Below, in pieces: positions 128-42,806 of a stretch of DNA of 64,000 bases. The notes below the pieces were generated by a model. It was given only the letters and a program-made list of their open reading frames with translations. It did no database searches and was not told the DNA's origin. The DNA is from Chrysomallon squamiferum (lineage: Eukaryota > Animalia > Mollusca). The first letter of the stretch is position 1. Each line of letters begins with the position of its first letter. Made by a program: the position numbers and the translations under genes. Location: positions 10,540,001 through 10,604,000 of the forward strand of contig CM022671.1 of the NCBI GenBank assembly GCA_012295275.1. Direction: 5' to 3'.

Positions 128-740
128 TTATTTGATTTTAAAAGAAAAAATTTGTTTTCTGTTAAGATAATGCAGTATTTCTTTAACAGTTTCATGTCTG
201 TATAAAAATAAATTTGGATATTTAGGAATACACTTATTAGTTAAAATACCTTTTGCTACAGCACAAACACATACTCTTCAGCTACTGGTATCAGATTGTG
301 TGGGAAAACCTGGCATTTCAGAGTAATTAACAAAAAAACACAGAGTGGTATTTAATGGTTTTCCATAATACATCTTATGTTCCAACATTAAATACCTGAA
401 CATATGAAAAATGATTTCATTATTTTTGCTCCCAAATGAATTGCAGTAGCTCAGTACTTTTTTAGATATGTCTACTACTATTATGTCCAATGAGTGTTTC
501 TTTCATTCAAAGGTACAACAACATATTTATAATCAAACCATCTTTTACTTTTACTTTCTGCAACGTGAAATGTCCATCTAGGTTGATCTCTATCACCATT
601 AACTAAAATCTTCTGACTGAACCAACCACATTCTACCATGTGATTATTTTGATTTTTCAGTTGTTTTTATAGTACAGACATGAATACATTAATGTGGCTA
701 CTATTAAGGCAGCAATCATGTTGAAGAATATTGTTTAAGA
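128..740 (-). pseudogene. Ulp1/SENP-like (peptidase C48) domain of the transposon ORF
   Basis: CLNSSHINVFM ... KYVVVPLNERNTHW [frameshift] IIVVDISKKVLSYCNSFG ... FPTQSDTSS*RVCVCAVAK ... YRHETVKEI; matches the His / Gln-x-Asp-x-x-x-Cys-Gly layout; catalytic Cys position is now TGA (278-280). Confidence 0.8.
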
Positions 741-879
741 AATCTGCATTTACTGTTCTACCATCAATTTCAGTGCTAACAACATATTCCAGTGTTTGCT
801 TCTTTATTGGATTATAATCAGTGAGGAGCTCTGTTTGTTTCTTAATCAATTTTTTCTTACTAAAATGTAAGGTCTCTGA

Positions 880-1625
880 TGATACTCTGTTTATTATATT
901 TTTGTTGTAAAATAATAACAGTGATCTGCATGTTTGTAAATCTGTTACATTTATGTCATTTACAGGTTTCATTTCACCATTTTTTACTTCCATTTTTAGT
1001 AAACTGTCACCATCACAACAAACAAGAATCCATTCTCCATTCTTTTCTGCCACAAGTGAATTTATCTTATATGATGTTCCATCAACAATTGTGGCAGTCT
1101 TGACATCATGTAATGCTATTTGGTTAATCGCCTTGTGTCTAACACTTGTACAATCTGATATATTAACAATTAAAGTCTTTGGTAAACTTGTTACAAACAC
1201 AAGAAAACTGTTTTCATATCGTGCACAATTACCTTCATCATGTTTATTTGCTCTCATATGTTTAGTGACTTCCTGATTAGAAATGTTTCAACTTGAACGG
1301 TGAAAACAGTGTCAGAACATACATACTTTTCATTACATTTATAATAGTTCAAACCAAGTGTTTCAAAATTCTCTGCAATAGTCAGTTTATATGGTTTAAA
1401 TACAAGTATAAAAATTCACATGGGTTTATAACACTGAAATGTTTTTCCTATTTTTCTATTTTGTGCCAAATATTTATTTTGATGTCCTTTTCTATTTTCT
1501 TGGTGTATTTATCAGATACAAACACTGAATTATCCTGGAACTAGAACAAATATTGCTATTTTTTAAAGCCTTGAAACCATTGCTTATGCACAATGCATTA
1601 ATAACAGATTCAGTATATAATGGCA
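880..1625 (-). pseudogene. Second, degenerate USP-fold-like domain
   Basis: Motifs in USP order: LYTESVINALC (Cys-box-like, no catalytic Cys), NPCEFLYLYLNHI (QQDAxEFL-like), YYKC, FVTSLPKTLIVNI, SYKINSLV, SLLLFY. Confidence 0.5.
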
Positions 1626-1629
1626 AATG

Positions 1630-2400
1630 TTTGTCTACTCTCTCACAGAATAACATGTAGCATGTATGATTAAAGTTGTCAGTTGAAAAAGACAGAGAAT
1701 TATCATCACATGAAACAAACTGATGTTCAATAAGTGTGGTATAGCGACCTCCGTGACAGGAATCTCCATGATGACAGACAATACTCTTCAGCTGATATTG
1801 AATTTCTGCTTTTTCTGCATTTTTACTCTGATCGTTACATTTTATGAACAAATTGTGAGGAATATGAATATAATTTGAATTTTTTCTCACTGTCTCTGAT
1901 TTAATAGAATTGTCAAATAACTGTTGCACAGAACTGTGGCCCATTGCATCAAGGTGACATGTTATGAAATGCTCATAATTATTCTCACTGAATGTTGTTG
2001 AGCTACACTGTAAACAAATATGTTTGTGTTGCAAAATAATACTACCTTGAACCCTTTCAGTTAGAGTGCCAATACTTTTAGTAAACAACTCATTAGCATC
2101 TTGCTGACTATTAATATTTGTTCTCATTGCATAAGCAACATTTACTATTGCATTGTGAAAATAACATCTGGTACCTCTTTGCAATGTTTATTTTCATCTT
2201 TCAAATTTTTCAGTATTTCCATCACACTTTCTTCTGCTCTCTGAAGTGGTAATTTTACATTATTATCAGAATATACAGTTACAGGCTGACATTTATTTTC
2301 ATAAAGAATTAAACATGCTAAATCACTTGCTGCTAGGGCTTGCATCACTGCATTAAACCAGCAGGTGTTGCCAAAATTCTTCATAGGTCTGCAGATGAAT
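1630..2400 (-). pseudogene. USP/UBP (peptidase C19) deubiquitinase domain of the transposon ORF
   Basis: Cys box PMKNFGNTCWFNAVMQAL, QQDANELF, ICLQC, His box YQLKSIVCHHGDSCHGG(R)YTT, CDD, CYMLFCER; one frameshift near 2150-2185; catalytic His position reads CGC (Arg). Confidence 0.88.
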
Positions 2401-3519
2401 CCTAAATCAGTGAGATCTTGGTCAACAGTTTTTACATTTTTCTCATGACTATAATGCACACTTTTGAAGCAGTGATCATACACTAGACTGGATTTGTTCC
2501 ATATTTTAGTGGTATTGTATGTTGTTTCAATTTTATTTTTGGGAGCTTGCTGAAAAGTACCTTTCTTCTTAAAATTATCAGGTTACTGTTTTGATATGGC
2601 CCACATTTCTGATTTTGTTTTTTGCCAATTGATTTCTTTATCTTCCTTAAATATTTGTTCACTTTCATACAATCTACAGCTGCCAATTTTTGCACTGAAA
2701 CAGTTAGATTATGCAATTTTTCTGAAAAATCACCCAGTCTGTATTGGGTTCTGCCTTGCAGTCCAATCTGCTTCAGAAAGTTGTTTTCATCTGCTCATGA
2801 ATAAAGTTTTTACTACTGGGAATTTCTGTTGCAGATTTTTCAGTATGTGCTACGTTTGTCAAAAATATATTGGACCATAATGGCAAACTTGGCAACAATT
2901 TCTTTTATAAGTATTGAAGAAATACTTCTGAAAAATACGGATTGACATTACTATTTTCATGATATTTATATGCCAGGTAAGTTTTCTTAATATTTTAAAA
3001 GGAGAAGTTTCAGCTAAATTAAGAAATTCTTCCTCTGTATAGTAACCAGGTTGCAACATTTTCATGTCTTCTTGTTCAAAATCGGTGCTGCCCAACCTTT
3101 TCCGAACATGGGCCGGATTTAAGAAAAAACGATGCCAATGGGCTGGACTCACATTTCTAGCCTTTCATTTTTTAATACAGCTACTTGAAATGGTTTGAAA
3201 AAGTAGTCAGAACTGAAAACATTGATTCTATTATTCTATTTATAGAAATTATCCATTATACAATTATAATTCATAACTCAATTTAAACGTAGGGGTCCTA
3301 CATATGATACTATTTCTATTACTTCTTCACTGCTATCAAAATATTATAGTCTCCAAATATTCTGTGAATACGAAATGATCATTAAAATTTTGATTTAGAA
3401 CCTTACATTCTATAAAACAAATTTAACAATTGATCAAGATTAAAAAAACATTTGTATTTCAATAATAAAACAATTTTATTTAGATGTATACCGGTAATGA
3501 ATGAAAACATCAGTGAGAA

Positions 3520-5316
3520 ACTTGAAATTGTTTCGAGTCATCAAGAAGCTTTTCAATGTCTGCCGGAATATTTGTTAAGGCCAGTCGGAGTTCATCTTCG
3601 AGGTGAGCATCACTCAAAGAATTTCATTTGTTCGATTTTACCAGTAGCATGCGACTGAAGAGGTATTCACATATCCATGTCGAACCGAACAAAGCAAGTA
3701 AGCGTTTTGAGTAGCAAGTAAGATTTGGATATTGAGTGTGAGGCAGACCGAATTTGTAGAAGTCCATCAGATTCCTATTTAAAAACTGACTCTTGACAGT
3801 CACTTTGTAATTCATTCAGTTCCATTTGAAGCTCAACGGGGGCATCAGCAGGATCCACCTGATCTCGGTAAAGTAAGGAATGCCAGAAAATTCAGCATTT
3901 ATCTCATCGAGAAAATTTCAAAACTGTCGATGATTTAATGCACGACTCCGAATGAAGTTGACTGCTTTCATTATCCATGACGTGATCAAACTTAATGATT
4001 TTGGAGCAAAGTGATTCCTGAGGTATAATGCAATGATACCACAATATTTGGTCTTTACTCACATTCAGGGATTCCAGTTTTCTTTGGATGAAACCACGCA
4101 AGCCTTGTTCACAAAAATCGCCAGTTGTGGTGTATCAGTCATGTCAGCAGATTCGTCGATGGTAATGCTGTAAGTTTCCAAGTTTTTACAAAGTTCGTTC
4201 AACTGCATTTTCGTATTTTCAGCCAGTTCTTCAGTCCTTTGGATTATTGTATTACGAGACAAGCTAACACATTTTACAGCTTTCTCTTTCTCTGGGCACA
4301 GAATTTCAATCACAGAGGTGATACATTCTTTGACAAAGTCTCATTCCGAAAAAGGTTTCATGTTGCGTGCAATCTTTTCAGCAATGACGAAACTTACTTT
4401 GGTGTATTTTTTCGATCCATCATCTATTTTCCAAAAAATATTCTGTTGCGAGACTAAATTCCTTTGAAGTAAAAGTACTTTCTCCTTGTGTTGATCTCCT
4501 TCATAATGATTTTGGGTCGAAGTGTGCTTTAATGTGTAATGCCGTTTCACATTTTCAACGTTTGGAACTGTGACTGTTTCACCACAGATTAGACAGAGAC
4601 ATTTGATTCCATGAAGAAATACAAATTTGTCCACGCCTCATTAAACCTGCAATTCTCGTTAAACCTGCGATTCTGCTCCTTAAACCTGCGATTCTGCTCG
4701 TTAAACCTGCGATTCTCCTCGTTAAACCTGCGATTCTTCTTGTTAAACCTGCGATTCTGCTGCTTAAACCTGCAATTCTCCTGGTTAAACCTGCGATTCT
4801 CCTTGTTAAACCTGCAATTCTGCTCCTTAAACCTGCAATTCTGCTCGTTAAACCTGCGATTCTGCCCTTAAACCTGCGATTCTCCTCGTTAAACCTGCGA
4901 TTCTGCTTGTTAAACCTGCGATTCTCCTCATTAAACCTGTGATTCTCCTTGTTAAACCTGCAATTCTGCTCCTTAAACCTGCAATTCTGCTCGTTAAACC
5001 TGTGATTCTGCTCCTTAAACCTGCGATTGTGCTCGTTAAACCTGCGATTGTGCTCGTTAAACCTGCGATTCTCCTCGTTAAACCTGCGATTCTCCTTGTT
5101 AAACCTGTGATTCTGCTCCTTAAACCTGCGATTCTGCTCCTTAAACCTGCAATTCTCGTTAAACCTGCGATTCTGCTCCTTAAACCTGTGATTCTGCTTG
5201 TTAAACCTGCAATTCTCCACGTTAAACCTGCGATTCTCCTTGTTAAACCTGTGATTCTCGTCGTTAAACCTGCGATTCTCCTCGTCTACTTTTCTCATTT
5301 TTCTAGCTGACACCAT
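3520..5316 (-). pseudogene. hAT transposase remnant
   Basis: RKVDEENRRF, CLCLICGE..KRHYTLKH zinc finger, KPFSE, SLSRNTI, YSITIDESADMTDTPQLAIFV, WYHCII, LALFGSTWICEYLFS dimerization motif; frameshifts and internal deletions. Confidence 0.93.
4641..5285. repeat. 21-bp tandem repeat, about 30 copies, inside the hAT transposase 5' coding region
   Basis: Unit ttaaacctgcgattctcctcg and variants; reads (E/K)(E/Q)NRRF(N/K) on the minus strand. Confidence 0.97.
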
Positions 5317-7739
5317 GGATGAACAAAATTTGAAATTTATTGTGAAAAAGAAACTACTGTAATTTGCTCATTGGTATAAGAAGGCTTCCGTATCAAAAGT
5401 TGAGCCTGAGTAAATTTGAAATTAAATCACCTCAAATGCCAGTTTTATTGATGCAGGAAATGTCACGTGATATTATTCCAAAATCACGATAGATTATTGT
5501 GGCATGCGCGCCCCAGTGGAAAATACTATAGACATTTCAATAAAAAACGTTCAGCTTTTTCTGTTGAAATATCTGTGGTAATTTGCCAGCAGTCCGTCTT
5601 CAACCAGCTGAGGTGAGTGCTCTGAGGCTTTTGAATGGACGACTGAATCAATCAATCGTACACTCTGTGATTCTTCACTTTTTATCAATTTTTGATGTCA
5701 GCAATCACACTATTTTTAGACCTAACGCTACTCCATTCTTCAAACTGAAAACTACTGATTAGTAGCCAATCATCATCGAAGAAAAATAACAGCATCTGTG
5801 TTAATGTTAAGGAATAAATTGAAGACCGACTAGCGGGCTGGATCCTAAGGCTTCATGGGCTGGACATTGGGCAGCACTGCTCAAAATTATATTCATCAAA
5901 ATCAGAAAATTCTTCTGAAAATGATGTTTCAAAAGAGTTGATTTTATGAATTAGTCTGTCTATAAAGTGTGCATTATAAAAATTTACACTTTATTCATGA
6001 AATGACTAGAGCATATGTGAACAGTAGTATTTTTGGCATTTGAAAAAACACTGCTGACTGATGATTTTCCATGTTTGATGTAAAAATTGATTCCATTATT
6101 AAAATGTAAAAGTGCTGCTAAGATAAAATCCATTGATTCATCACTAATTATAAGTTTAGGGCAGGAAACATTGTTATATCCAAATAGTTTCTTTTCAGCA
6201 TGTCTGAAATTACAAATCCAGTCTAACACTGTTGTTGGCAATGCTTGATTTTCACTAATCATAGCTGCAACAGGGATGCCCATCTTACCTTTTCTATGAT
6301 TTTTTTACAGCAAGTTCATAGTACAAGAACTGCTTACCATCTTCATTTTTACAAACAATGCTGCCTGTAGCATCCCAATACAAAGCAACTTTTTCTACTA
6401 AATTGTGTTACAATCTTAATCCCTCTTCTGACCAATACAGAACATAATTAGGCTTTAAACTAATTTGTTGAATGAAACCTATACCTGTATCAGATCTTTC
6501 CTTCATTTCTTTCATTAACAGCAAAAGACTTCTTATACAGTCATCTCTTCTTCCTAGATTCACAAGCAATTTGATGAAACACACTTGTGTCTTTTCCATA
6601 ACCACTGACATTTCCAGCTACAAGTGTGTTTGATTTAGCATTCTTAACACATTCTAAATACTGCTGCAAGGGTTTCTTACCACTAGCAAATATGTTTTTC
6701 CAATCTTCTCTGAGTTTTTTCCTCTGATAGGCCTATGATTCTCCTCTGTAATATCATGCTTAACATTACCTGAATAACTAACATGTACAATGTTCTGTTT
6801 ATACATTTTCAATCTGACATGTACAGAACAGTCTGCAAAAGTACAGCAAACAATCTATTTTTTTTTTTTTTTTTGCTAGCAGAAGTTACATGATGATGTT
6901 TAGACATGAAAACACAGTACAGATTGCTTTCTTTTAATCCTTCAACAAAAGCATCTTGCCATTTGCCATGCTCAAATTGTCTGCCTTTTCGTAATTTAAG
7001 TAAATTTTCCACTTTCCAGCTTCCAATTCAAATGTTGTCTGCATTGGAAGTTGGTATGTAAAATACTTCTCAGATATAGGGCAACCAAGTACTTCTTCCA
7101 TGGTAAGCCTTATCTAAAGATGAGGTGGATATAATTTCATCAGTGACTTTATTCTTAACATTATCCTCTGAGCTAAATTTTTCTCTATTTTCTGATATAC
7201 TATCTTCATCACCTTCTCCAGTGTTGCTATCACAATTAAGCTCTACTGTTTTACTACAATATTTCTTACAATCTTTCTGTTTAACATCAGCATGTAAAAA
7301 CTATCTCAGGTGCTACAATTACCCTTTTATCTTCATCACAGCAAACATTTACCTTCTTTTCATTACCTGTATCTTGACAAAATACCTTTTCCACTGGTCT
7401 TCTCTCTTCACAATATTTCTCTTTACAGTATTTTCCTTAACTGAGAATACAATATCTGCCATATATTTATTTTTGCTAGTACAAGAAAATGGATTGGACA
7501 AAAGTGACTTACCTTTAATGTTATATATCATTTTATCACACTCATTTATTCCACAAATGAATGTGATCTCCTCATCTCTTGTTCCTTTAGGGAAGCATGG
7601 AATTTTTAAACAACTGAAATGCTACCAAACTAAACACTTTTCACACTGAATCATTTTATTTTTACTCATACCATGACTTCTTGCAGATGCAATGTTCTTC
7701 ACTGCTTCTGTCCTTCATTTTGACATCAGATGTACAGGT

Positions 7740-8110
7740 ATCTTTCAACATGTTCCTAAAAACAAACTGTTTGACATTTCCTCTATTACGTGACCATACA
7801 ATATGTAACCTTTTTCTATTTTTTTGATTATTCTGCCAACCAAGATTTTCTGCAACCACACCATAAGGACCACTTGGTTGAAGATTCCTTTCATTTTCTG
7901 TTGTGCATTTACCTTTGAAATACTTACCTATAAGTTTGTAGTCATGACCAGAAATATTTTCATATTTACTTACTTCATGGTAGCTACAAATGCCACGAAC
8001 ATTACCCCAATTTTCCATCCACATTACATGCAGTTTCTTTCTATTCTTCAGATTATTTGCCATCTTCAATCTTTTTGTGGCTGTTCCTAGTGGACCATTG
8101 TCTTTGTACA
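7740..8110 (-). other. Duplicated N-terminal module of the MULE ORF, putative DNA-binding
   Basis: GPLGTATKRLKMANNLKNRKKLHVMWMENWGNVR and GPYGVVAENLGWQNNQKNRKRLHIVWSRNRGNVK align within ORF 7662-8162. Confidence 0.55.
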
Positions 8111-8484
8111 CGGACCGATTTTTTTTCTCCTGCACAAACTGACCTGTCTTTCTGTAGTCCAATTTATATCACGCTTTTTCTCATTTGAAATTTTCTTCCC
8201 TCCACGTTCATTAATGACATTCTGCAACACAACAGAAGTAGATTTGTATGGGGGAAAAAGAAAAGAAAAAGAAAGTGATATCCTTGACCATGATTTACAT
8301 TTAATACAGTCAGTTTTAATAAAATTCAACCTTTTCCTTTCCTGCAATCAAAGCTGCTCAGAACATAACTAATGTTATAATGGATAACAAATTTTTGTTT
8401 CAGTATTTGTCATGTCCTATAATGGATAATTTGAAGAAAATATTTCATCTGTATTTATTATATGTGGATCAAAATAATACTTAC

Positions 8485-8550
8485 CTTACTTCCATAAAAT
8501 ATAATCTTAGCCTGTGAACTGTATTTACTCCCAGATCAAGTTCCATCAGA
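8485..8550 (-). other. Candidate small exon upstream of the transposase ORF
   Basis: tgtttttcag acceptor and gtaag donor(s); one open frame LMELDLGVNTVHRLRLYFME; donor choice uncertain. Confidence 0.45.
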
Positions 8551-8844
8551 CTGAAAAACAAATTTATAATTTAACATGTTTGTTTCTAGGAAATGAGAAA
8601 CTTTAAGAAAAACAGAAACAATTGTTATACTGCTACACCCAGTAAAATGCACTAAAAAAGATATAAATAAATGAATGGCACTGAAGAATGTAAATGTTTT
8701 TCATAATTTTCTGTGTCAGTCTAAACATATGTATACAGTGATAGAATGAGAAATAAATGAATGGATGATAAAAGAATAAAATGAGATAGACAAATAGAAG
8801 CACACACACACACATACACAAAAGAACAAAAAAGCATTTTCCAC

Positions 8845-8887
<43 letters not shown>

Positions 8888-9978
8888 TGTATATTGTGAG
8901 AATGAACTAGTAAAGTGTGATGCTATATTGATAAGAAGCATTTTCTTTTAAGATACTAGAAACATAATAGATCTTTTAACAATACTCCATGGTATTAGTA
9001 AATCAAGTTTTGTTAATTGAAAAAAAAAATGATAGAACTTGTAAATTTTGGTTAGATTGAACTAAAACAATGGTTAAATAAATAATCCTTTCAAGCATTA
9101 ATTTGTAAATCACAAAACAACAACAACAACAATATATATATAAAAAAACCACTACAGTTTAAACCTGTACTTATCATAAAGTGTACATGAAATTGAATCA
9201 TATTTAATCAACATTAGAAAAAAACAATCATTAGAATAATTAAAAAAAAAAAAAATTACACAGACGTATCAAGACTAATATATTTCTGAAGTATAAACTT
9301 TAATATATATACTTTATTATTAATTTTGATTTGCAGGGGAAAAAAAAAAAATAATAATGAAAACATAAAGAAAAAAATAAAGGAAAAATAAATAATTTAA
9401 AAAACAGAAAAAACATAACTTGTAAGAATGTAAAATGTACATGATAGTTGTGTTCATATCAGCAAAGGACACTTTAACTATGAACGAATTCTTTAACTGA
9501 ACATTATCAGTTTTGTCTTGTAACCATGAACTAAATGATTTCGCATGATTTTGTAAATCACATGAAATTACTTATTTATTTCTGTGGTCATATTTATATA
9601 AAATGCTACACTATAGCAAAAGAACAGTCCCATCATAATTCTGAAGTAACCGATATGTGAAACATTTATCACTATGTTTTGGTTATTATGGTTAATTATA
9701 AAAAAAACATTAGCAAACTGAAATGAAGGTAAACAGTTGAAATTTTATAACAGTAAATGATTCAGTGTAACAAGTCTTTTGTTAATGATTTTATTACCCA
9801 TTTTGAACCATCACATCTTTCATTACTGGCTTCTGTCGATAGACTGTTTATCTGAGTAAAAGAACTGACTAAAGTATATACTGCTTACAAATGTAAAACA
9901 AAAGTTGTAAGTAGGTTTTAACTGAGTTTAATTGTGTATGGTGTGTGTGAATAGGAACAAGCATCAATATAATCTTAC

Positions 9979-10128
9979 CTGAGATTTTCTCTTCTTCACT
10001 TTTTCCCATAATGGGAAATCATTATCATAATCATCAGAGGTATCATCTTCTGGTGTAACTATCTCATAAACATTGTCATCAAAAACTTGCTCCTCTTCAC
10101 AAGTCTGATCTTCATCTGACATATCAGT
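9979..10128 (-). CDS. 150-nt acidic exon (TDMSDEDQ...WEKVKKRKSQ), product unknown
   Basis: atttcag acceptor, CAG|gtaag donor, open frame of 50 codons, ends in an NLS-like basic patch; identical copy at 62283-62432. Confidence 0.65.
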
Positions 10129-10611
10129 CTGAAATGTTATTAAAAATAAAACAAGATTGACAAAAAATATCCTTTATCACAGCAAAGTACATGAACACTG
10201 TTCTTCAATAAAAATCCATCTGTGGGTAAGGAATTTCAATAAATGACTGACATTTTCCACTTTTCATACACTGCAAAAATAAAGTGAAGAAATATCTGAA
10301 TTGCTACAACTTATTATAATATTACGAAAAAACCTGAGAAGCAAATGTGAAAGTTAAGAATGTGCCTATGATCTGCTCATGAAAAAGATAACAAATAGTA
10401 AAAATAATAGTTTATTCTAAAGTGGCAGTTCTGATATATCAGTTAGTGAGAACACATACACACCAATAAAGTTTATTAGAATTACTGATACATGTAAGAA
10501 CATAAACAGAAAGAACATTACCTGCACAAAATAATGCATCAAAAATGTTCAAGACTCTAATCTAAATTAAATTAAAAAAGGAAATAAACAGCGACTCTTG
10601 TAAAAACTTGC

Positions 10612-10666
10612 CTTATCATCTACAACAGGTTCCATGTGCAGTTGAGGCCAATCACTTTCAACATAG
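10612..10666 (-). CDS. Candidate 55-nt exon (YVESDWPQLHMEPVVDDK)
   Basis: ctcttttcag acceptor; donor is gcaag here but gtaag in the right copy. Confidence 0.5.
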
Positions 10667-10694
10667 CTGAAAAGAGCATAGATTAAAATATTGC

Positions 10695-11110
10695 AAAAGT
10701 CTATGCAGTTCCCAATACTACATACTAATATGGTTTATACCACATATAGAGATTTATGTCACAGCTTTTAGTTCTGTCTGCAAAAGGAAGATCAATGTTG
10801 CCAATGACGACTTACAGCAACACCCCAACTGAAACCCCTGTTGCTCTTAAACCAAATTTCATGGCACAAATGTCTGTGCAGTTCCTAATACTAGGTACTA
10901 ATATGGTTTAAGCCACATGTAGAGATTTATGTTTAGTTTTGTCTGCAAAAAGAAGGTCAGTAATGCCAATGACAACTTACAGGTACACACTCTGGAAAAC
11001 ACCCCAATGCCCTTAAACCCAGTTTGTTGATGCACATGTCCATTCATTTTCTAAATGTGCTCTTATTATGGATTAGACAATATATAGTTATTTATGTTAT
11101 AGCATTTAAT
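10695..11110. repeat. Diverged ~170-bp tandem repeat, 2-3 copies
   Basis: gtct(a/g)tgcagttcc.aatacta..tactaatatggttta..ccacat.tagagatttatg recurs near 10699 and 10872; weaker third copy; mirrored near 61300-61712. Confidence 0.7.
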
Positions 11111-11291
11111 TATCTGTTGGCCACAATCGAAGTGGTTTATGCAGTCCATTTATAGAAGCATCCCTAATAGTTAAGACCTGTGTTGTTAAATATATTTTCA
11201 ATAGCCAGACATAAGGTTATGATCCACTATTTGAAATAGGATTAACTTTAAACTTACGTGAATAGCTTTGATTTTTTAAATAGATTCTTAC

Positions 11292-11354
11292 TGTTAACAG
11301 ACTTCTGCTGCCATCTCTTTCTAACAACCAGTCTCGAAAAGGAACGACTGGAAT
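11292..11354 (-). CDS. Candidate 63-nt exon (IPVVPFRDWLLERDGSRSLLT)
   Basis: tcttattttcag acceptor, gtaag donor, GC-richer than flanks; phase does not fit the next exon cleanly. Confidence 0.5.
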
Positions 11355-12668
11355 CTGAAAATAAGACAAATTTGCTCATTAACAAAAATTATCACTGGAT
11401 ATAAAAAGATTAGAAATGGTGATTGAGCAAACAGATATTATAAATTTGATTTTCCTCAAACACAGCTACTGAGCTAGCAAACAATATGTCTGATGCAAAA
11501 TGAATCATAACAAACACCATATTTCTAAAATAAATTGCATTACATACTTGAAATTTTAATTTTGCTACAGTTTTCAAACAGGTGTGCTTTTTTTTAAAGT
11601 ATAAAAGTGAGCATGTTTTATACCTTAGAAATTTAAACTTTTATTGAAACTGCGAACTATTTCTTTGAAAGAACTGACATGTGATAAATTATTCACTGGA
11701 GTTATCGTTCGTGGGTTTCACAGTGGCTGGAATTGTTTGCTGCCTTTATTTCAGTACATAACATAATTTAAGCTAGTACAAATTTGAAACCATTTTAACT
11801 GATAGTTGTCTTTAAACAGTTATTGCTTAAATTATTAATTTCATTGTTCAAATAAGATTAAATATTACTTCAAACTAATATAATGTTGGTATTAATCTAT
11901 GCATCAAGGCATTTCTGGAAATATTTGATTAAGTGTGTATTATTATAATTAAAATTTATCAAATTGTTACTAACACATTGTATCATAATCTCAAAACAAC
12001 ACAACTACTTTTCACTCCCAGAAAGAAGCAATGAGAACGAGGGATATTATAAAATAAAAAATATGAAGTAATAGTATCAATGATATTGCATTGCCTGTGA
12101 TATTATTGATATAGTGGAGATCATCTAAAATTTGGCTGCTCAATCTCTAACAGACTTGTCCATTAACTAAATCTGTTATAAATTCATTGATTTCTTATAG
12201 TTAATTTCTTCTTTTTCCTGCTTTGTCAAATTTCCTTTTTCTTGGAGTGGATATGTATTTTAAAAAAGTAATCAGATAAAATAATAAATAAGAATGAAAT
12301 GAAACTGCATTTGAAACAACTTCATTTTTGTGAATCATTCACTGTTTCTGGCAATAACTATCATTGTTTTCAACAGTTCTTATCTTAAACATTTATTCAG
12401 ATATTTCCATTTATATCATTTAGACATTTCTGAAATATGATAATGTGAACTAAATAAAGAAAAGAAAACTGTATCATTAATTTTAGTATAATAGCCTCAT
12501 ATTTAAGTTTATCTTTCAGGAATTTAGAGCTTTAGATAATATATTAACCTGAATGAGCTGTAGCATATTATTGTATTTGTTGTAATAATTTTTATTTTTA
12601 TTAAACAAAATGCGTGTATAGAAATAGAAAATTAAAAGTTATAAAAATATGTAATATATATATATATA

Positions 12669-15210
12669 CCGTATATACTTGTGTATAAGTCGAATTTTTC
12701 GGAGACTATATTAAGGTAATATTTTGGGGGTCGACTTATACATAGGTAATGCTTTTGTAGCTGTTGCTGAAGAGTTGCCATTTTGACTGTTTTTTGCTAC
12801 AGGATGCATCTAAAATAATCGCGGTCTTTCAGCTTTTCAAAAATATAATTTTATCGTATAAAAAATTTTGAAAAATTATATAACAAAACCAAATATGAAT
12901 GTAAAACATGATATTCTTCCGTTTAATGACATAAAAATACATTTTAAAGCGAGAAAACCGTCAGTACGGCGTTATGCCTTACGGCGTCTTGCAATGATCT
13001 AGGAATGCAGACTTCTCTGCCAAATTGCACTAAATATCGGTCCTAATTTCATAAACAAAACTCACTTGTGTAATTGTAAAGAATTTGGTGAAATAATATT
13101 GCAATCGTCATTAATATCCACTACCGACAAATCGAAAACAAACTAAATTTCTATAAACGTTCTGCAACAAAAATCAGTTCAACTTCTCGCCATATTTGTT
13201 ATTCTAGTCAGTTGCCAAGTGCGCGAAGTCTCAGCCAATTAGAGCGCTAGGAATAGGATCGGGGGCGTGTCTTGTAGCAGAGTTTTGATAGAAAAAAATA
13301 TTTCGGAGGTTCCGAAATTATCTTACTTTGAATTGCACGTTCATGTAAAAACCGGTAATAAATAATAAAGCAACACATCTTTTGGAATTTATCTACAAAA
13401 TTTAATTAAATACTGAATTACGTCTAATGCCTGGAAATCCACACGTACCTTTAAATAGACCTTGATCTATATATCCCGGTAATTATGAAACATTGCAACA
13501 ATACAAACATTTTAATTCCAAAACATCCAACATTTACTGGGTAATACTATAATCTAGAGTAACAAAAAGTTTATTCAAAGCCTTCAAAGTCATTTTTCGC
13601 CATCACTATCGCTTGCCCCAAAAAGTTCATTCCACTCTTCAATACCACCAGTGTTAATTGCATCATCATAAAGATCATCGTCACTGTCAAGTGGGTCATC
13701 ATTCCCAGAATCCTCTCCTGTGGGACTATTTTCTTGAACGGAATCAGCAAGGGCATTGGGTTCACGCCATAAATAGTCCTCCTCTGTCCCATCTAGTGCA
13801 TTTGAAATTCCACACTTCAGAAAGGCCTTAACAATTATAGCCGGGTCCAACTGCTGCCAGGCGTCACGTACCCACTCACACACTGTAACTAGTGATGGTG
13901 CTCTCATATTGCCCCCTTTTCTGAATGTCTTGTCCCCATTTAGCATCCACTGATTCCAAAAATGCCGAACAGTGTCTTTAAACGGCTTATTTATTGAGAC
14001 ATCCAAAGGTTGTAAAATGCTTGTCAGGCCCCCAGGGATGACTGCCAAATCTGTATTTTCTCGTCTTACAGCTTCTTTTACAGAATCTACCAGGTGTGCT
14101 TTGAACATGTCCCATACTAACAGAGACTTTTCTTTTCGTAATCCACCTGAACGATTGCTCCACACTTGGTTAACCCAGAGCTTGCATCCGGCCTCATCAA
14201 ACCACCCTTTTGTATGTACGTGTATTAATACGCCCTATGGAAATTTTTCTTTTGGCATAGTTTTGCGCTTGAAAACTACCATAGGTTTTAACTTTGTTCC
14301 GCCTAAAATAACGGTGAATTTTGACTTTTCATGGCCTGTCGTTTTCACTAGCACGGTTTTTTCTCCTATCTTGTTAACAGTTGTATTCGATGGCATGTCA
14401 AACGTCATTGGCATTTCATCCATGTTGCCAATACATGCCAAAGCATACTTGTTTTTCTCTCTATGACGGATAACAAATCTGTGAAAACTTGTTATTTTAT
14501 CATCAAGCTCTCTGGGTAAGCGCTGGGCGAATTTGGTTTTTTGTCTTAAGACTAAATGATGCCTTTTCATGAACAGCATGCACCAACCAGGACTGGCTTT
14601 AAAATCCATAATTCCTGCCTTCTTAGCTAACTTCAGTGCTTGTAAACGGATAGGATACCTTGTAACTATAGAGCCGTCTTGTCTACTTGCTTGAACCGAC
14701 TCAAAAATTGTCTTTTCTATTTCCGGATGTTTTGACTTTTTGCCTCTGTCAGCACACTTCACTTTTGGCATTTCAAGTAATTTAGTACTCATTTTTCTCC
14801 AGTCCCTAACAAGTTTTTCACTGACTCCATACTCCTGTCCAGCAGCAGAATTGTTAGAATTTTCAGCAAATCTAATTACTGCAAGCTTAAATATAATGGT
14901 AGGTTAGGTCTCCATGTTAGACCTATTACGTTAAAGAGATACTATTTATGATACATTTAGGCTATAGCTCGTGTAATACATGCATTTACGTTATTATGGT
15001 ATGTTCGTGCAAGTTACAGCTCGTGCAAGTTAAGTTACAGTAGGTGTACAATGTAGGCCTTCATGGCATTGTCACACTGGTCTAAAAACAGTGACGGTGC
15101 CTGGAATCTACAGTCGACTTATACACAAGGAATACCTAAAATGACGCAATTTTTGGTCTTAAAATACACATCGACTTATACATAAGGTCGCCTCGTACAC
15201 AAGTATATAC

Positions 15211-15212
<2 letters not shown>
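12669..15212 (-). mobile_element. pogo/Tigger-family (Tc1/mariner superfamily) DNA transposon, copy 1
   Basis: TIR ccgtatatacttgtgta at both ends, flanked by TA within (TA)n; internal gtcgacttatac subterminal motifs. Confidence 0.95.
13590..14890 (-). pseudogene. pogo transposase (CENP-B-type HTH + DDE_1), 5'-deleted and disrupted
   Basis: FKASPGW, IGNMDEMP, KLKPMVVFK, LLVWDMFKAH, VIPGGLTSILQPLDVSINKPFK, acidic tail; start region deleted relative to copy 2. Confidence 0.93.
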
Positions 15213-15247
<35 letters not shown>

Positions 15248-15804
15248 CTGACTGAAATATTAAAATCTAAAATGTTACAATCATAAATAATAATAATAAT
15301 AACAACAAGATCATAACAGAGATAATTCAGTATAGTACAAATTTCAGACTATTTTAACTGGTATTTCTCTTTAATCTAAAAGTTTGCTGAAATTGTTACA
15401 CTAATTTGATTGTTCAAGTGAGATTAAACATTACTTCAGACCAGTGCAGTGCTGATATTAATCTATGAATCATGCATTGGTTGTTAAGCTTAGCCTTCAA
15501 AACTGACTAAAAGCGAAAAAAATAAATATGAATATGGCTATTGGTAAAGTAAATAAATTATAAAAATCTAAAAAATTCAGCCACTGTCATTAAGATTTAA
15601 AATGCACCCAGTATGAAGGAAACATTTATTCAAAGCAGGCCGAGTCAATTTTGCAACATAAATAAAAAATCAATTAGCCTTGCTTTGAAACTATAGCTAT
15701 ATTTATATATAGTTCAAGAAACTACTGAAAATAACACATTAAATTTGTATTATTATGATTACTATTTATTAAACTTATACTAAGACATTGTATTATTATT
15801 TTCT

Positions 15805-17230
15805 TCATTTACTAATTAAAAATATTTCAGAATTCATCTTTAGAATGTTGTCAAATGATATGAATGTCATCTAAATATCTGAGATATAAAAATGGCTTCT
15901 TGGTTGCTTTGTTTAATACCATTTCTTCCCATTCTGTGATATAGATAGAGGCAAAATGTGGGCTAAATGTCTACCCATTGTGCAGACACAAATGTGCTAT
16001 TAAATTTCTCCATTAACTTCAAAGATGTTAACTCTTAAGCTTAATTCAGTTAATTCAATAATGGTTTTGGTTGGTCTGTATTTGGGTATTTTTCAAAAGC
16101 TGTCTCAACAGATTCTATACCCACATCGATGTTCGTTTTTTTTATCTGCCTAAACAGTATTTGTTTTAGGCATAATTTCTAACTTGCCAAAAGTTTATCT
16201 GAAATGTTTATTCCTCTAAAAAAATATTTAACTTTTTGAGAATTTTTTATGGATAGAGCTTATCATATTTCTTAACTGGTTCGTGCTAGTTGAGGAATGT
16301 TGTTGGTTATTGCAGTTTATAACTATATTTAGAATTATTTTCTTGCTATTATTACTTTTATGATTAATGGCCATTGTCTTAAAGTGATTGGTACCAGCAT
16401 TCTGGATAGCATTCTACTTGGATCTGTTTATGTACGTCTTCATTAGTCCGTGTTGAATTCGAGGAGCCAAAAATTAAGGTATTCTAACAATTTCAGGCAT
16501 TGTGGTTTATCAGATAGTGCATGTTGGTGTTTATAAAATTTAGAAGGCCTAAATGTGGGAGATTTTAAAACAGCAAATGATTTAGGTGGTTGATTAACTT
16601 TAGGAGTGATGCATGGAGCATGAGTTTTAGAAACTGGCAGGTTAGCCTTTAAATTTGGATATTTACACAGAGTAATAATTGATGGTGATGAAAGACCCCA
16701 TTTTGGTCTACCTGCATGGATAGTACCAGTTTTGGGGCTGGGATTATTCACCCTGTTTTGGGATTCCTTTGGGCTAACCCAGAAACAAAATTTAAAAATT
16801 CTAATATTGCACATTTAAATAATTTAGTTTTATAATTTGTTCTACTCCAACTGACTGCATTGTATTTAGTCATATCTAAATCTATAAGCATATATAAAAG
16901 CACAGATTGTTTTATGGAATTTACATAATAGTTAATCCGTAAGTTTAGCATCTGACATGTTCACTTTTGGTTGTTAAGGTTTAAATCAAATGTTACAGCT
17001 GGTTTTATAAAATAATTTATTTTACTTTCTTTTGGAGGGCTTTAAGGAGAGTGGAATTGGCCAGATTCTCTTCAAGGAATTTAATGTGATGTATGCACTG
17101 CAGAATGTCATTTTTGAGTTTGACTGAACTTGGTAGTGGATTAGTTTTATTTGTAAAGTTTTTGATTTTTGTTTTTTAGCAGTATTTTGTTTTGCCATGT
17201 AGATGGGCATGTCATAATTTTAGAGAATAA
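15805..17230 (-). mobile_element. Penelope-like retroelement RT fragment, degenerate (boundaries approximate)
   Basis: NIDVGIESV, NIFEVNGE...CTMGRHLA..FASIYITEWEE...KPFLYLRYLDDIHII (RYLDD at 15866-15880). Confidence 0.75.
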
Positions 17231-17277
17231 TCCCTCAAAAACAAACTAGGCAAACTTTTAAATTTAGAAGAGTGGCT

Positions 17278-17470
17278 ATGATTTATTACAATAATTGATG
17301 AAATAACTACCTAAACACTGATTCAAGTTTAAAAGAGACAACAAATATTATGTAACATGATTTATTACAATAATTGATGAAATAACTACCTGAACACTGA
17401 TATACAAGTTTAAAAAAGACAACAAATATTATGTAACAAATTATTACAATAATTGATGAAATAACTTTGA
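17278..17470. repeat. ~80-bp tandem repeat, about 2.5 copies
   Basis: atgatttattacaataattgatgaaataactacct.aacactgat... repeated; shorter in the right arm (about 54866-55029). Confidence 0.8.
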
Positions 17471-17670
17471 TACAAGTTTTTGACACTTAGATTTTAAAGA
17501 CATTTTTAAAAAATTATCACCCTAAACCTTTCTTTGAAAATAGCTTTTGTCACTGATCAGGTGTTACCTATCCAGCATCTTCAGAAACTGCTGGCATTTG
17601 CATCTGTCTCCTTGAACTGAGACATTTTTCAGCATATCAGAGATAATTATGAATGTTGTCTTTTATTTCC

Positions 17671-17723
<53 letters not shown>

Positions 17724-17773
17724 TTATTATTATTATACCATATTGATACTAAGTTGAAGGTAAATAATAATAA

Positions 17774-17804
<31 letters not shown>

Positions 17805-18434
17805 AATAAAGAAAATGAAATACATTTTATTTATTTAGAAAAAAACATTTAAAATTAATAAATTATTCTTATTGACATCAACTGTTGCATTAATTTGAAA
17901 ATTCTGTATGATAAGAAAGTGAGAAACGAATATTATATATTTATTTCTTGTGAATATTTATAAGGAAATTGCAATTTATAAGATGATATTAAAGAAGAAA
18001 AAGCCAGGTATTTTATTTCAATTTTTTTTCTCATTTAACTTCATCTGACATGACAAGCTGACCTGTTTGACCAGTCAGCTTGTTTCTGTTCACACCACAG
18101 AGCTGTCATACTGACTGGACAGCTTCAGTCTGCACTCTAAAATGTTATTGTTAAGTGTCATGCTTCAGTAACCACTGGCTGGCAAAGTGAGTTGTTCTGT
18201 CACCAGGTGACAATGTTACAATTTAATACCACTGTGTGAGTTCTAAACACCATTATTTGGTTTTGGCACTGTTGAAGTAAGTGAAAGAAAATTCAACAGA
18301 AAACAACAATTGACTTTCTTTTGGATCTTTTGTTGCTGTTCATAATCTTAAGTTTGAAAAGTAAGTTAGTAGATGATACATACTTGAATAGAATCGATTT
18401 ACCTTCCAAATAAATTTATTTTTCTGATGTTGAC

Positions 18435-18765
18435 CAAGGTATTAGGCAAGCAGTTTAATTGTCCAATTCAATAGCCCAGTCATGACATCACAAGGCCATA
18501 TACCAGTGTTTTTGTGGCATCACTGATCAGATACTGCCTGATGATTCTATAGATCTTCTATAGCTGAGAGTGACATTTTGCATTCACTTTGTGGTGCATA
18601 GTCAAAGCAGAATCAAACAATAACAAGATTTCTCACACATGGTACAAAAGATTTGGACAAATCATCCACAGTAAATAATATGGAATCATCATCCTTTGAG
18701 TTATGTTTAGAAGTGAAATCACCACTCTGGTCTTGTCAGCTTTCTTAGAATACTGTATAGCTTTA
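18435..18765 (-). mobile_element. L2/CR1-type LINE ORF2 3' fragment, degenerate
   Basis: ADKTRVV ... CVRNL..LFDSALTMHHKVN ... IRQYLISDATKTLVYGLVMS*LGY resembles the post-RT VRNLGV.FD...KTLV.ALV.SRLDY motif. Confidence 0.65.
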
Positions 18766-19644
18766 GGACTTGTAAAAAGCTTTACTTTGATGCACATATG
18801 TGATGACCATGTTGTCACGGGGCTCACACCTTTATAAACACACTGTATGTTTTATTAAGGCTCAGTCTAGGGTAACAAGGTGCTTTAATGGTCACCTAAC
18901 AAGGAATATAAATGCTAAATTGACAGCAATCTATATAAATCAATAAGTCTATCCATCCACTAGAGAAATACACACAACACCTCAGTTAAGGTTCATGTTA
19001 ATTATTTAATTATGATATTTTCTGCTCCTTGAGAAAGGTCATATGAGTAAGGTCATACGGGGAAACAAGACAAAATAAGAATCTCTATGGAAGACAGATT
19101 AAAACCTTAAAATTTTAGGTATAACAAATGTTTTTGACACAGTTTAATTGCACATTACACCCAATCAAAATAAGAACAGAAAATTGCTTACCATACTCGT
19201 CCATAAAGACAATGTCATTCAAAAACATTTGGTTTCCCCGCCTACCTGAATTCTCATGTTCACCTATGAGTTGAGTGACAATATATTGATAGAGCAGTAA
19301 TGTTAGAGCAAATGATAATTATGAAACAAGAGGTATTTGGAACCTTTTGTCATATTAATAACCAGATTTTAAATAACAACAATAAATACATTATGTAATA
19401 AAACCAGGTGTATTTTAATTTTTATTTTTGAAAAAATATATTAATATTTTCAGTAATCTGCAGCTAGAAAACTGAACTGTGAAAATGACACAAGATTTGA
19501 AGGAAGGTAAAACTGCCTCAGAAGGAAATCACAAAAGTTGACAATGAACTCAGGTTAGTGCCATTAGTATCAGATACTTTATTTTATTTTATTAGTTGTC
19601 TTTATGCTACTGTAACCATATCGAAACCAAATGTGTGTAGATAA

Positions 19645-20075
19645 TGTCTGAATTAAGATGTTTTGCTAGATTGTTATCAAGTCATCAGAAAATCTAAAAA
19701 TACCACCTGAATTAGATATTGTTATCAAGGGTTCATGTGTAAATAATTCCCCACAAAACTATATGAATCCTATCTGCTGAAACAATCAATCTAAATCAGA
19801 CATTGCCACAAAGTTGTAAAATTTATACAAAACCTAGCAAATTGTTACAATCTAACAAAATAATGAGCTGTAGTTTATAGGTGATTTAACAAAATATGTA
19901 ACAAATACTGAAAATCCAGTCTATAACTGAAATAAGAATCTGAACTGTTATAAGATATGTAGATAGAATGAAAAAACAAACCTCCAAAACATAACAATGA
20001 ACAGCCTGAATCAGATACATTATAATCCAACATGTAGACAACAAAAACTATAATCAGATACAAAAAGGAAGCAAA
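19645..20075 (+). repeat. Cluster of degenerate ctgaatcagatac...atcc...gtagacaa motifs
   Basis: Several diverged copies, clearest near 20004-20068; same family as the motifs and minisatellite in the TRAF units. Confidence 0.65.
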
Positions 20076-32833: not shown

Positions 32834-35288
32834 TCCACAAACACGTACACATGAACAAAATACTTAATCAGTTAATGCATTCTCTTTCTGGACACAGTTA
32901 ACTACTCTTAACAAATGTTAAGAATTTTCTTGTTATTATCATATCATTGTCTTTATTATAATTATTATTATTATCATTATTATCATTATTATTATTTTCT
33001 TTTGTTAGAAAAGTAAAAGTTCCCTTTTCTCTCTTTTTGTTGTTTACTGCATCATTTTCTATGTCTTCTCCATTACTGGAAATTGAGCTTGGATTTATTA
33101 AAATCAATGTCACTTAAACCAAATTTAATAAAACAATTTTTGAAAACGTTGATCAATTCATAAGTGTGATTTCTATTTCTTCATTATCAGTTACACTTTG
33201 TTCTATGCTAGAACACCTCGTGAATATTCATTCTAAATTTTATTTATTTATTTATTTATTTAATTAAAAACAAAAGCAATCTTAGTAAATTTGAATGGTT
33301 TATTGTAACATTTTTTTTTATCAGTATTTTGCTTTTTTCTTTTTTTCCTGTACATAGAAAAATCATCAGATGTATTACTTCTTTCAGCATTTTTATTTTT
33401 AATATGAAAATAAAGCTATGCACTGCTGAATGTAAATGGTTTATACAAAACCATAGAGCAACTATTGAGAATGTATGATTTATTGTTAATTATCTTTATA
33501 TTTTGTGTCATTTACTCATTTTTAATGTTTTTATAACCAGTAACCATTGCGAATGTATAATTTTATTGACAACTTACATTTTGTGACAGATTCCTAATTT
33601 TTTATGTTTTTTAATCGGTAAACATGTTTACTGTTTTTACATGTATATTGTGTTATCTTAACCAACTTTTTACAAAATGCACTCTTTATTTTATTGCCCA
33701 TAATGCATTTTACATTGTTTGCTAAACAATTTTAATTTTTTAATAATTTATATTTTAAATTTGTACCTTTTTAAAACAATATTTGATTGTGCCAAATAAG
33801 TTTTCTATTGTTTGAAACCTGTATTATGCACAGTACATTTATATTCTGATAATAGTACTAGTACTATTACACTGTTATACTGAAAATATTTCAATAAATG
33901 GCTTAATTGAATTTCTTGTTTGTTGTTATTAGTATAGTTATGTGTGCACAAATTAATTTTCAGCTTACAGAGTGTAATTTTATAATAACAAATACAAATG
34001 GTTTTTGATGTGTTTATGATTTGACACATCAATTGAAATAGTTTCATTGTTTCGTGAAAGAATATATGCTGGCATTAAAGTCAGTTAAGTAAAGGAACAC
34101 CTAAAACACTGATGTCTATAGATAAAATATTTTAAGAGGACTGACAATCTTGACAACAGTCATACCCTTGGATCAGTCTGTTGTTAAAACAATTTCTGGG
34201 ATTCATAAATGATATTGCATGAAATGTAATGAATGAAACATGAATCAATGTTCAACAAACTTGAGTATTCTATTGATGACTGGTACTGGGATGATCCTCA
34301 AGTCATACTGACAGATATCTTAGAAGAAATGAATAACATTTGTTTGAATATACATTTAGGAAGGAATTTACAATCAAAGAATAATCAATCATGCTATTAA
34401 AAGAAGAAACAAAGTATTTTACAAAAGTTGAAATGTTATTTTCAAATAGCCCAAGTCTGTTATGCATAACAAGAACAGATCAAATATTTAAATTATTTCT
34501 TATCCTATTATTTTACAGATTAAGTCATGAAAAGAAAAGGAAAGAAAAAGAAACATAGGCTATCAAAATATTATCTTAATTTTAAAAGTAATGAGAACAC
34601 AACATCTAACAGTTAAGATTTCATTTATCAGTATTATTACTTAGCATTTGTTTGATTATTATTGTTGTTGTTTGTTTTTATTTTATTCTGATTATTTTTA
34701 TCATTATTTCTTTATTAATTTGTGCATTATATAGATACTTCTCCCATTAGTGATGTCTGAATGTAAGAGTTATTTCTCTTAGACCATTTCATTTAGAAAG
34801 AGAATCATGAATGTATTGCTAGACATTTTCTTGTCCATTAACAAGAAAGGAAAAAAGAGGGATAAATTTTCTGTTAAAGAGGGACTATAAATCTGGAGTG
34901 TTTGCTTTTTTCTTATTTTTTTTCGGTTATCAGGGCTGTTTCATCTAAATACATGATGAATATTTATTTAAAGTTACCATATTTCATCCATTAAAAAATA
35001 TATTGCTGTTAATTAATTATAAATTATTGTCTTCTTTTAAGGACTCTTCATACAATATGGATCTTTAATAAATATACATAAGAAGCAGCCTCAATCAGAT
35101 ACTTTAATCCCATGTGTAGACAATAAATATTAATCAGATACCAAAAATTAATTACCCCTAAAACAATAAAAAGAAATTAAATAAAGCCAAAAAGCCTGAA
35201 TCAGATGCTGTTTTCCAGTATAGACAATAAAAAACAACAATCATATAATAAAAGGAACAATAAAAAACAATAATTAAATAAAAAATAG

Positions 35289-35320
<32 letters not shown>

Positions 35321-36046
35321 ATAAAAATATCAGTTTTAATCAGATAATGTAAAACAGTGTAATGTTAAAAATAATTTTAAAAATAAAATAATAATAATAA
35401 TAATTAATAAAGTAAAAATTTTAAATAAATTAATAAAAAAATAAAAATACAAACATAACAGCTGAATCAGATACTGTAATCCAGTGTGTTGACAACAAAT
35501 AACAATCAGATACTAAAAGCAAATTAACCCCCCACAAAAATAATAATAAAAAGCAAGAAGCCTGAATCAGATACTGTAATTCATTGTATAGACATTAAAG
35601 AAACAAAAACAAAAAAAAGGGAACGAAAAAAATAACACCACCCCTAAAAAGACATAACCCAACTGATAACTGATAATAATAATAATAAAATAATAATGAT
35701 AATAAAATAAATAAAAACCAAAATATTCTTTTTCAGTTTTCTACGTGTTAATTTTTTAAACAATAATTGAAAAGTTATTATGACTTAAACTGCTATGTTT
35801 TTACACCTGTGTAAAAGACGACATTCATTTTTCTTTATATAAGAAAGTAAAGGCTTTACGGAAACCAATATGAGTACAGATGTGGACATATTGGTGTATT
35901 AAGAATTACCTCCCCTCCAATGATTGCATTAACAGTTTTGCACAGGTTTCAGTTATACACAAATCAAAATAGTTTATGCAAATTGAGTTCAATGATGCCA
36001 TGATTCCCTGTCCCTAGCACCTCCCAGAAATATTGGATTTTCATGC

Positions 36047-36105
<59 letters not shown>

Positions 36106-36113
36106 GTGTAAAA

Positions 36114-36144
<31 letters not shown>

Positions 36145-36976
36145 CACTGGAAAGAAGAATATAATCAAAATGAAATCAAATTTAAACTTTGCAATAATTT
36201 TGATATGTCATGTTTTCGTCTATCGTCCAATGTTTCCTAGTAAAAATGTGATTGTTGTTGCAAAGTTGTGATAATAGAACAATACCAAGATAGTCACAAA
36301 ACACAATTATTTGTCATTCACATTTTCTTTCTTTTTATATTTGGGCCAGTTTTATTAGAAAAGTTTGGATTAATAACACATTTATTCACAATTGTATGAA
36401 AAGAATGACATAAGAAAAAGAATGACTAGAATATCATTAACAAACCATCTCAAAATACATTATTTACAATCCCATCCATGTGAAAGAGCAAGAATTGTTT
36501 TTCAGTGTTAAGATTACTGTGGGAGATTATATTAAAATGATAATTATACATTTCAAAAAAGCATTTGGTATCAAAACAATTCTTAAACACATTATGCTGA
36601 AAACTTTGTATTTGTAAATGTGAATATGAAAAATTTATTTCAGAAATTTCAGGTCGTTCTTTTTCTTTTTTCCCCATAATCCAGCTGAAAGAAGTGCATT
36701 ACTGGAAAAATAAAATGATTGTCAAAAATACAAATTTTATCCTTTTAAATAATCATATCTCTACTTTATTATTTGTTTCTATTATTATTATTATTATTAT
36801 TATTATTTATTATTAATTTAACTTTTCAGCACTTAAACATGGTTTTGCAGGATATCAGTATACAGTGATAAAAATGAGTGAACAAAAAAAAAGAAAGAAA
36901 TTATAAATTTTGGAAAAATAGTTGAGTCTCATATTATTGTATTAAATAATGATGGAATTAGTACACTGCTATAACA

Positions 36977-37609: not shown

Positions 37610-37892
37610 CTGCAAAGGATTAAACTGAAATAAGTTTTAAGATTAGACAAGGATAATGAAACACGTGAAATGAATAAGCTGTGTAATGTTAAATTATTTT
37701 CTTTTTAAATCTGTGGTAACAAATTATTATTAATAAATCATCAATGATAAGAAAAAATATATATTTAAACAATCCCAAATCATTTAAAATATAAAAAAAT
37801 ATTAAAAACTAAATACAACAGACAGAATGTAAACCAAATAGATGTTTCTTACTGTTATGAAATATACAGTTTATCGATATAATTTAATTTAC

Positions 37893-38449: not shown

Positions 38450-38485
<36 letters not shown>

Positions 38486-40428: not shown

Positions 40429-40466
<38 letters not shown>

Positions 40467-41102: not shown

Positions 41103-41136
<34 letters not shown>

Positions 41137-42762: not shown

Positions 42763-42806
<44 letters not shown>

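Follow-up and report, generated by a model that had tools for sequence, protein, structure and literature searches.

A Rehavkus-type Mutator transposase joined in one protein to a predicted deubiquitinase, a pseudo-USP and a predicted deSUMOylase

We analysed 64,000 nucleotides of AT-rich, eukaryotic DNA from the mollusc Chrysomallon squamiferum (GenBank assembly GCA_012295275.1, contig CM022671.1, positions 10,540,001 to 10,604,000; hereafter the window), which carries on its minus strand, at 128-8168, the broken transposase gene of a Rehavkus-type Mutator-like element (MULE). The gene encodes, in this order, a PHD finger, a DDE transposase, a ubiquitin-specific protease (USP, peptidase C19), a second USP-like domain that lacks a His box, and a C48 (Ulp1/SENP-type) protease. 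In intact relatives these five parts stand in one protein, an architecture that we regard as practically certain. A first-pass annotation of the window had proposed that the ancestral element encoded transposase, USP, second USP-like domain and C48 protease in a single frame, and such a frame is what the intact relatives display.

By tblastn, the intact relatives are colinear with all fragments of the window gene. In each of three metagenome contigs (L001, L002 and L003) a frame free of stops, of 1820, 1741 and 1900 codons respectively, matches both UCH and C48 in Pfam, which bears out the annotated protease domains and places them in the same frame as the transposase, not in separate genes. 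As these frames are stop-free in raw contigs, a gene-prediction artefact is excluded. A 106-aa transposase fragment used as query retrieved 4 proteins from 140 candidates, two of them with UCH and C48, and a search with the transposase core gave 18 matches among 6547 candidates (11 with UCH and C48, 4 with UCH only, 3 with BAG only). A profile search returned 3457 proteins at E ≤0.001, the best 150 of which were examined. A FastTree phylogeny was built from 84 transposase cores after removal of 17 near-duplicates or odd assemblies and of rows with fewer than 440 profile positions. It contains a 36-row clade (SH-like support 99) with a USP in 30 rows, the other 6 ending at most 106 aa past the core; all 19 rows with tails longer than 800 aa carry Pfam-confirmed USP and C48 domains. 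A 25-row clade of related transposases (SH-like support 99) has no USP.

Named carriers of both proteases are Pinctada imbricata (P0001) and Palaemon carinicauda (P0106). The distant branches, one of which includes Clytia hemisphaerica (P0129), show several arrangements: in P0111 and P0129 a USP precedes the C48, P0118 has a degenerate USP ahead of its C48, P0183 has C48-like motifs ahead of its USP, and P0066 and P0074 have a C48 only. Another distant relative, P0140, has a C-terminal Macro domain (E 8e-9) in place of the proteases, possibly an ADP-ribose reader or eraser carried as cargo. The USP fragment alone found none among 216 candidates, and viral contigs yielded none among 91. Prokaryote genomes gave one of 34 candidates, a broken relative (L014) in a Sedimenticola metagenome-assembled genome; P0116 likewise comes from such an assembly, and host contamination is most likely for both.

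Residue counts below refer to 22 aligned relatives picked for carrying both proteases. The USP Asn, Cys, His and Asp residues are kept in 22/22, and Pfam UCH scores above its cut-off in relatives. In the window, where 20 frame fragments were scanned, UCH matched two (E 1.9e-10 at 1495-2187 and E 7.7e-4 at 2148-2582), and with the Cys, QQD and His boxes present the annotated C19 domain holds. It is a predicted deubiquitinase. No host donor could be named, USP12/46, USP36, USP30, USP18, USP21 and USP2 all scoring within a narrow range.

The C48 domain keeps its His, Gln and Cys in all 22 relatives, while the third triad residue is Asp in 16, Asn in 5 and Ser in 1. Peptidase_C48 reached only E 0.007 on the window fragments, under its cut-off; a profile map recovered the domain at E 3.5e-26 and 2.1e-26, and with the kept His and Gln and the SENP1-like relatives the Ulp1 assignment stands. 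The closest solved relative is SENP1 (E 4.8e-38), followed by SENP2, SENP5 and SENP3, which suggests a deSUMOylase. Alternatively, one protease might process the protein itself, which is a very long single frame of 1,600-2,100 aa, or the C48 domain might act on ubiquitin or NEDD8 instead of SUMO; C48-fold enzymes with non-SUMO substrates exist, and Asn replaces Asp in 5/22. Against another substrate, the best solved matches are the SENPs named above and Ulp1, SENP8 is absent among 43 solved-structure matches and among the best 60 of 147, and a Trp beside the catalytic His is kept in 19/22; we hold these alternatives to be distinctly unlikely.

The region between USP and C48 matched the USP fold by HHalign (probability 95%, E 4e-8, 153 columns; control against C48, 0.1%). 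Against the profile of the first USP, 10/21 sequences scored E <0.01 and 0/21 did so when reversed; its top match in the Atlas comparison was a UCH cluster at 0.95, and the window profile map gave E 8.8e-12. Two CxxC-type pairs occur in 19/22 relatives, and the GH[YF] box in 0/22, which marks the domain as a pseudo-enzyme. The annotation was thus right about a second USP-like fold, which lacks the His box of an active enzyme. The pseudo-USP probably arose by internal duplication.

The transposase core of P0049 was modelled from a 108-sequence alignment (pLDDT 89; a 4-sequence model with pLDDT 39 was not used). Its best fold match was ISCth4 of the IS256/Mutator group (PDB 6xgx, 6xg8; Foldseek E 7e-4, Z 13.0, root-mean-square deviation 4.9, 259 residues aligned), followed by Hermes (Z 10.8) and the P element; identity to ISCth4 is nevertheless about 11%, and ISCth4 has no accessory domains. 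The fold is RNase H-like with a helical insertion. Its triad Asp residues are kept in 19/19 and 20/20 rows covering the sites, and the C and H of CxxH and the Glu in 22/22, which agrees with the Mutator-type transposase of the annotation. In the Atlas comparison, MULE clusters were found at 0.90-0.91. When the core alignment was searched against the sequences of solved structures, no transposase was returned. Pfam MULE (PF10551) had no match in 87 related proteins, known Rehavkus rows not having been scored for it, and no Pfam transposase family, MULE included, matched any of the 20 window fragments. Of the three families expected in the window, UCH was therefore recovered, Peptidase_C48 fell short of its threshold and MULE was missing.

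The transposase belongs to Rehavkus as judged by DDE motifs compared by eye. Rehavkus is a Repbase group placed in or beside MULE/MuDR. The motifs (D-A/S-T-G-S, S/T-D, C/D-x-x-H, P-L-W and E-x-x-F) agree, on comparison by eye, with six Rehavkus rows from the PMC13359780 supplement, nearest Rehavkus-1_HR, -1_TC and -3_TC, and differ from the canonical MULE rows there; they occur in 24-35 of the 36 clade members. Further shared traits are a single open reading frame (ORF) and a PHD finger within it (Pfam PHD in relatives, a relic in the window); tandem repeats downstream of the gene in two relatives may correspond to the Rehavkus minisatellite. Rehavkus elements have been described with terminal inverted repeats (TIRs) of 26-412 bp, a 9-bp target site duplication (TSD) and a minisatellite before the 3' end. 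Beyond the frame, L001 has a 179-bp array running to the contig end and L003 two 177-bp copies, with none in L002.

In 28 proteins there were 15 matches to a PHD pattern. Trp (15), Met (14) and Tyr/Phe/His (15) occupy three positions that we take to be the cage for trimethylated lysine 4 of histone H3 (H3K4me3); the window relic has His, Met and Trp there. Solved neighbours are SET3, PHF8, ING2 and ASH1L, all weak matches (E ≥0.006). BAG domains occur in 21 fetched relatives, many of them near-duplicates, as one or two copies between PHD finger and transposase in part of the clade (P0001, P0003, P0008, P0012); the window copy has none.

Transposase, USP, pseudo-USP and C48 are under purifying selection, with ratios of nonsynonymous to synonymous substitution of 0.17, 0.25, 0.29 and 0.23 (N-terminus, 0.49), all from the single pair L002/L003. 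Trees of the four domains from 18 proteins share subclades, and Mantel correlations between domain trees were 0.71, 0.54 and 0.71 (0/2000 shuffles each), values inflated by kinship. These results fit inheritance of the domains as one unit.

Mobility of the element is likely. Many divergent copies are present in each C. squamiferum sequencing run, and the relatives' protein clusters spread over several contigs (one has 8 members on contigs of 4 different lengths; the P0012 cluster has 441 members). TIR and TSD searches gave only chance-level matches in the window, L001-L003, L007 and L014; no more than 127 bp of the window lie past the stop codon, the contigs run out within or close to repeats, and neither reaches the 3' terminus. 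This result would suit a domesticated host gene or a prediction artefact in place of a mobile element, as would the position of the two window copies within a large inverted duplication, which needs no transposition. The stop-free frames in raw DNA, the many divergent copies per run, the cluster members on several contigs, the retention of all DDE residues and the commonness of decayed copies argue the other way, and we judge that explanation highly unlikely. RNA runs X5 and X7 were rejected as evidence of expression, as they also cover non-coding and hAT DNA and their contigs are unstranded.

SUMO-targeted ubiquitylation is a two-step pathway, both steps of which would be reversed by a deSUMOylase acting alongside a deubiquitinase. 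We propose, with a probability slightly below even (about 45%), that the proteases rid the transposase complex of SUMO and ubiquitin while it is bound to DNA, protecting it from degradation or dismantling by the host before transposition is done. The predicted deSUMOylase and deubiquitinase should act in cis because they form one chain with the protein that binds the element ends. The pseudo-USP would serve either to bind ubiquitin or to support the active USP, and the PHD finger would likely read H3K4me3 and steer the complex to active promoters. The BAG (Hsp70 co-chaperone) domains of some members point to protein quality control as well. Helitron deubiquitinases are active in vitro and have been proposed to prevent degradation of transposition proteins (PMC9741609).

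The same anatomy would serve a second role, in which the proteases, brought to the element ends, deSUMOylate silencing factors and deubiquitinate histones and so keep the element transcribed. Silencing guided by piRNAs and acting via SetDB1 requires SUMO and Su(var)2-10 (10.1101/533091), the PHD finger ties the protein to chromatin, and tandem repeats in Rehavkus ends could bind many transposase molecules (10.1101/2024.12.02.626372); L001 and L003 have repeats of 177-179 bp 3' of the frame. Yet a silenced element makes no protein, so that the loop could maintain expression and not start it; the two RNA runs extend to non-coding and hAT DNA; and the predicted PHD cage presumably suits an active mark, not trimethylated lysine 9 of histone H3. 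We consider this second role possible, on balance doubtful. A third option is that the proteases modulate the host's DNA repair where the element is excised or inserted, with no part in transposase protection, as Bao et al. suggested for Ulp1 and OTU cargo (PMC2836005); ubiquitin and SUMO do run repair pathways, whereas related clades without proteases exist, and we rate this as quite unlikely.

Several points weigh against protection of the transposase complex. DDE transposase complexes are non-covalent and so are less obvious targets of the pathway, and the anatomy does not separate protection from the upkeep of transcription. The proteases are dispensable for persistence of the group, since the 25-row related clade lives without a USP. 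The variable third C48 residue, the choice of the tallied relatives for carrying both proteases, the single pair behind the selection estimates, the kinship in the Mantel values and the negative TIR and TSD searches count on the same side. We nevertheless rank protection of the complex first and maintained transcription second, with repair tuning, self-processing and domestication lower. More tentatively, the protein may represent a counter-defence chain in a widespread, undescribed clade of Mutator transposons of aquatic invertebrates, in which a reader of H3K4me3, an Hsp70 co-chaperone (in part of the members), an active USP supported by its pseudo-USP and a SENP1-like deSUMOylase would erase SUMO-then-ubiquitin marks at the element's own DNA. 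If so, the recurrence of USP together with C48 on distant branches, in either order, would imply that selection favoured the two-protease set more than once.

Parts of this architecture are known from other transposons. For arthropods and annelids, Dupeyron et al. (PMC6446971) report Rehavkus elements that have a PHD finger and a minisatellite, with no protease listed; the clade reported here adds USP, pseudo-USP, C48 and sometimes BAG, and has named mollusc and crustacean members. Mutator and Ginger1 transposases carrying Ulp1, known from hydra, lancelet, Arabidopsis (Kaonashi/Vandal), melon and rice, share a C-terminal C48 on a DDE transposase and sometimes a PHD finger; as described, however, they have one protease and no USP, Ginger1 having OTU or Ulp1 and never both (PMC2836005). 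Trichomonas vaginalis XP_001314237.1 joins a DDE transposase (transposase_11) to a C19 USP, but belongs to another transposase family, and C48, PHD and pseudo-USP go without mention in that account (PMC2836005). Helitrons and Helentrons carry two kinds of deubiquitinase, OTU and VTD, the VTDs shown active (PMC9741609), and count UCH and C48 among their captured domains; they differ in being rolling-circle elements in which UCH and C48 lie, by the available description, in ORFs apart from RepHel and are not paired (PMC11417382). Full-text literature searches, which did not extend to Repbase or to most subscription papers, returned no transposase with both USP and C48; Rehavkus is documented mainly in Repbase, and prior description is possible. 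Ulp1, OTU, PHD and, rarely, C19 cargo were thus already known in transposons, and the USP and C48 pair on one transposase may be new.

The role of ubiquitin and SUMO proteases in transposons has been open since the first Ulp1 and OTU cargo was reported. Here both protease types and the transposase share one chain, natural versions of which are intact, lie in a single exon and keep complete active sites, and a tandem USP/pseudo-USP arrangement is added. One construct with point mutants could pit protection of the complex against maintained transcription and repair tuning. Some database entries named 'ubiquitinyl hydrolase 1' (P0001, P0129) are in fact transposases.

The window copy itself is dead, as first annotated, with frame breaks and lost catalytic residues. 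It lies in about 10 frame segments; the USP His codon reads CGC (Arg), the C48 Cys codon TGA, the transposase Glu motif has gone in a 25-nt deletion, and a further deletion lies 3' of CxxH. Part of the damage is confined to this copy: at 1745, each of the four runs has contigs with another base, which in run X2 accounts for 203.1/203.1 depth. All motifs quoted in the annotation were recovered on the minus strand in the order given (Table 1), and its view that no introns part the domains is supported: with the insertion at 3083-5879 subtracted, motif spacings are 397 and 629 codons in the window against 494 and 672 in intact P0004, which indicates deletions, not introns. Its end point of 8341 is too far, homology stopping at 8168, and it had overlooked the PHD finger, the doubled N-terminal motif and a second transposase copy.

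Table 1. Positions of the transposase gene, its motifs and associated features within the window
Feature	Position	Strand	Basis and remarks
Two tandem N-terminal motif copies (7995-8168, 7770-7943)	7770-8168	-	tblastn of P0012, P0011, P0173, best E 8e-18
PHD finger relic; frameshift and stop	7490-7697	-	tblastn to PHD of P0051, P0016, P0003; motifs; Pfam PHD in relatives
Transposase, N-terminal part: DNA-binding region, YWDATG, IISDES, HICSSH; several frameshifts	5888-7010	-	tblastn, profile map, motifs; fold of relative P0049
YWDATG	6380-6363	-	Transposase motif
IISDES	6151-6134	-	Transposase motif
HICSSH	6019-6002	-	Transposase motif
Nested hAT-type element, outside the fusion	3083-5879	-	Ends, TSD, PF18658 E 1.6e-7
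Transposase, C-terminal part; Glu motif deleted near 2780	2630-3082	-	tblastn, profile map, motifs
USP (peptidase C19): Cys box, QQD, zinc-ribbon fingers, His box (His to Arg)	1636-2387	-	Pfam UCH, profile map, codon
USP Cys box	2378-2352	-	USP motif
QQD	2106-2089	-	USP motif
USP His box	1776-1741	-	USP motif
Second USP-like domain without His box (pseudo-USP)	898-1600	-	Profile match covers 898-1290; remainder deleted or degraded
C48 (Ulp1/SENP-type) protease: His, Asn and Gln retained, stop in place of the Cys codon; frameshift at 484	128-777	-	Pfam, tblastn, profile map, motifs, codon
RNTHW	501-487	-	C48 motif
QSDTSS, then TGA	298-281	-	C48 motif
Second, 5'-deleted transposase copy	63359-64000	+	tblastn, motifs; extends past window edge

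The insertion has inverted ends and an 8-bp duplication identical at 7/8 positions (3075-3082 and 5880-5887), and carries a Spin-doc zinc finger (PF18658). A 21-bp array of 31 copies (4637-5285) lies within the 5' part of its hAT transposase gene and gives rise to long open repeat frames. The second transposase copy lacks the insertion, both flanks being joined in an empty site that is also present in contigs of three of the four sequencing runs. It is identical to the first copy at 430/470 aligned bases, and keeps the TIENRF Glu motif together with a stretch deleted in that copy.

The two copies lie head to head, each adjoining one arm of a 10.7-kb inverted repeat, whose arms (8988-19693 and 52683-63397, 95-97% identical) abut the 5' side of both; this repeat could either belong to a giant element or represent a segmental duplication. 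Run depth over 8988-10500 is as high as over the element, the junction 5987-8986 of a deleted copy was seen in three of the four runs, and one arm stops at an assembly gap. Between 20349 and 30889 lies an array of AT-rich units of about 1.1 kb, with partial copies at 11821 and 15387 in the inverted arm. A 47-bp minisatellite and a minus-strand exon that presumably encodes a TRAF/MATH-like domain recur in each of the four tandem units, about 4.3-4.9 kb long, that make up 34733-51983. Both inverted arms also contain a broken transposase (13593-14903 and 57436-58821), which appears to resemble pogo/Tigger.

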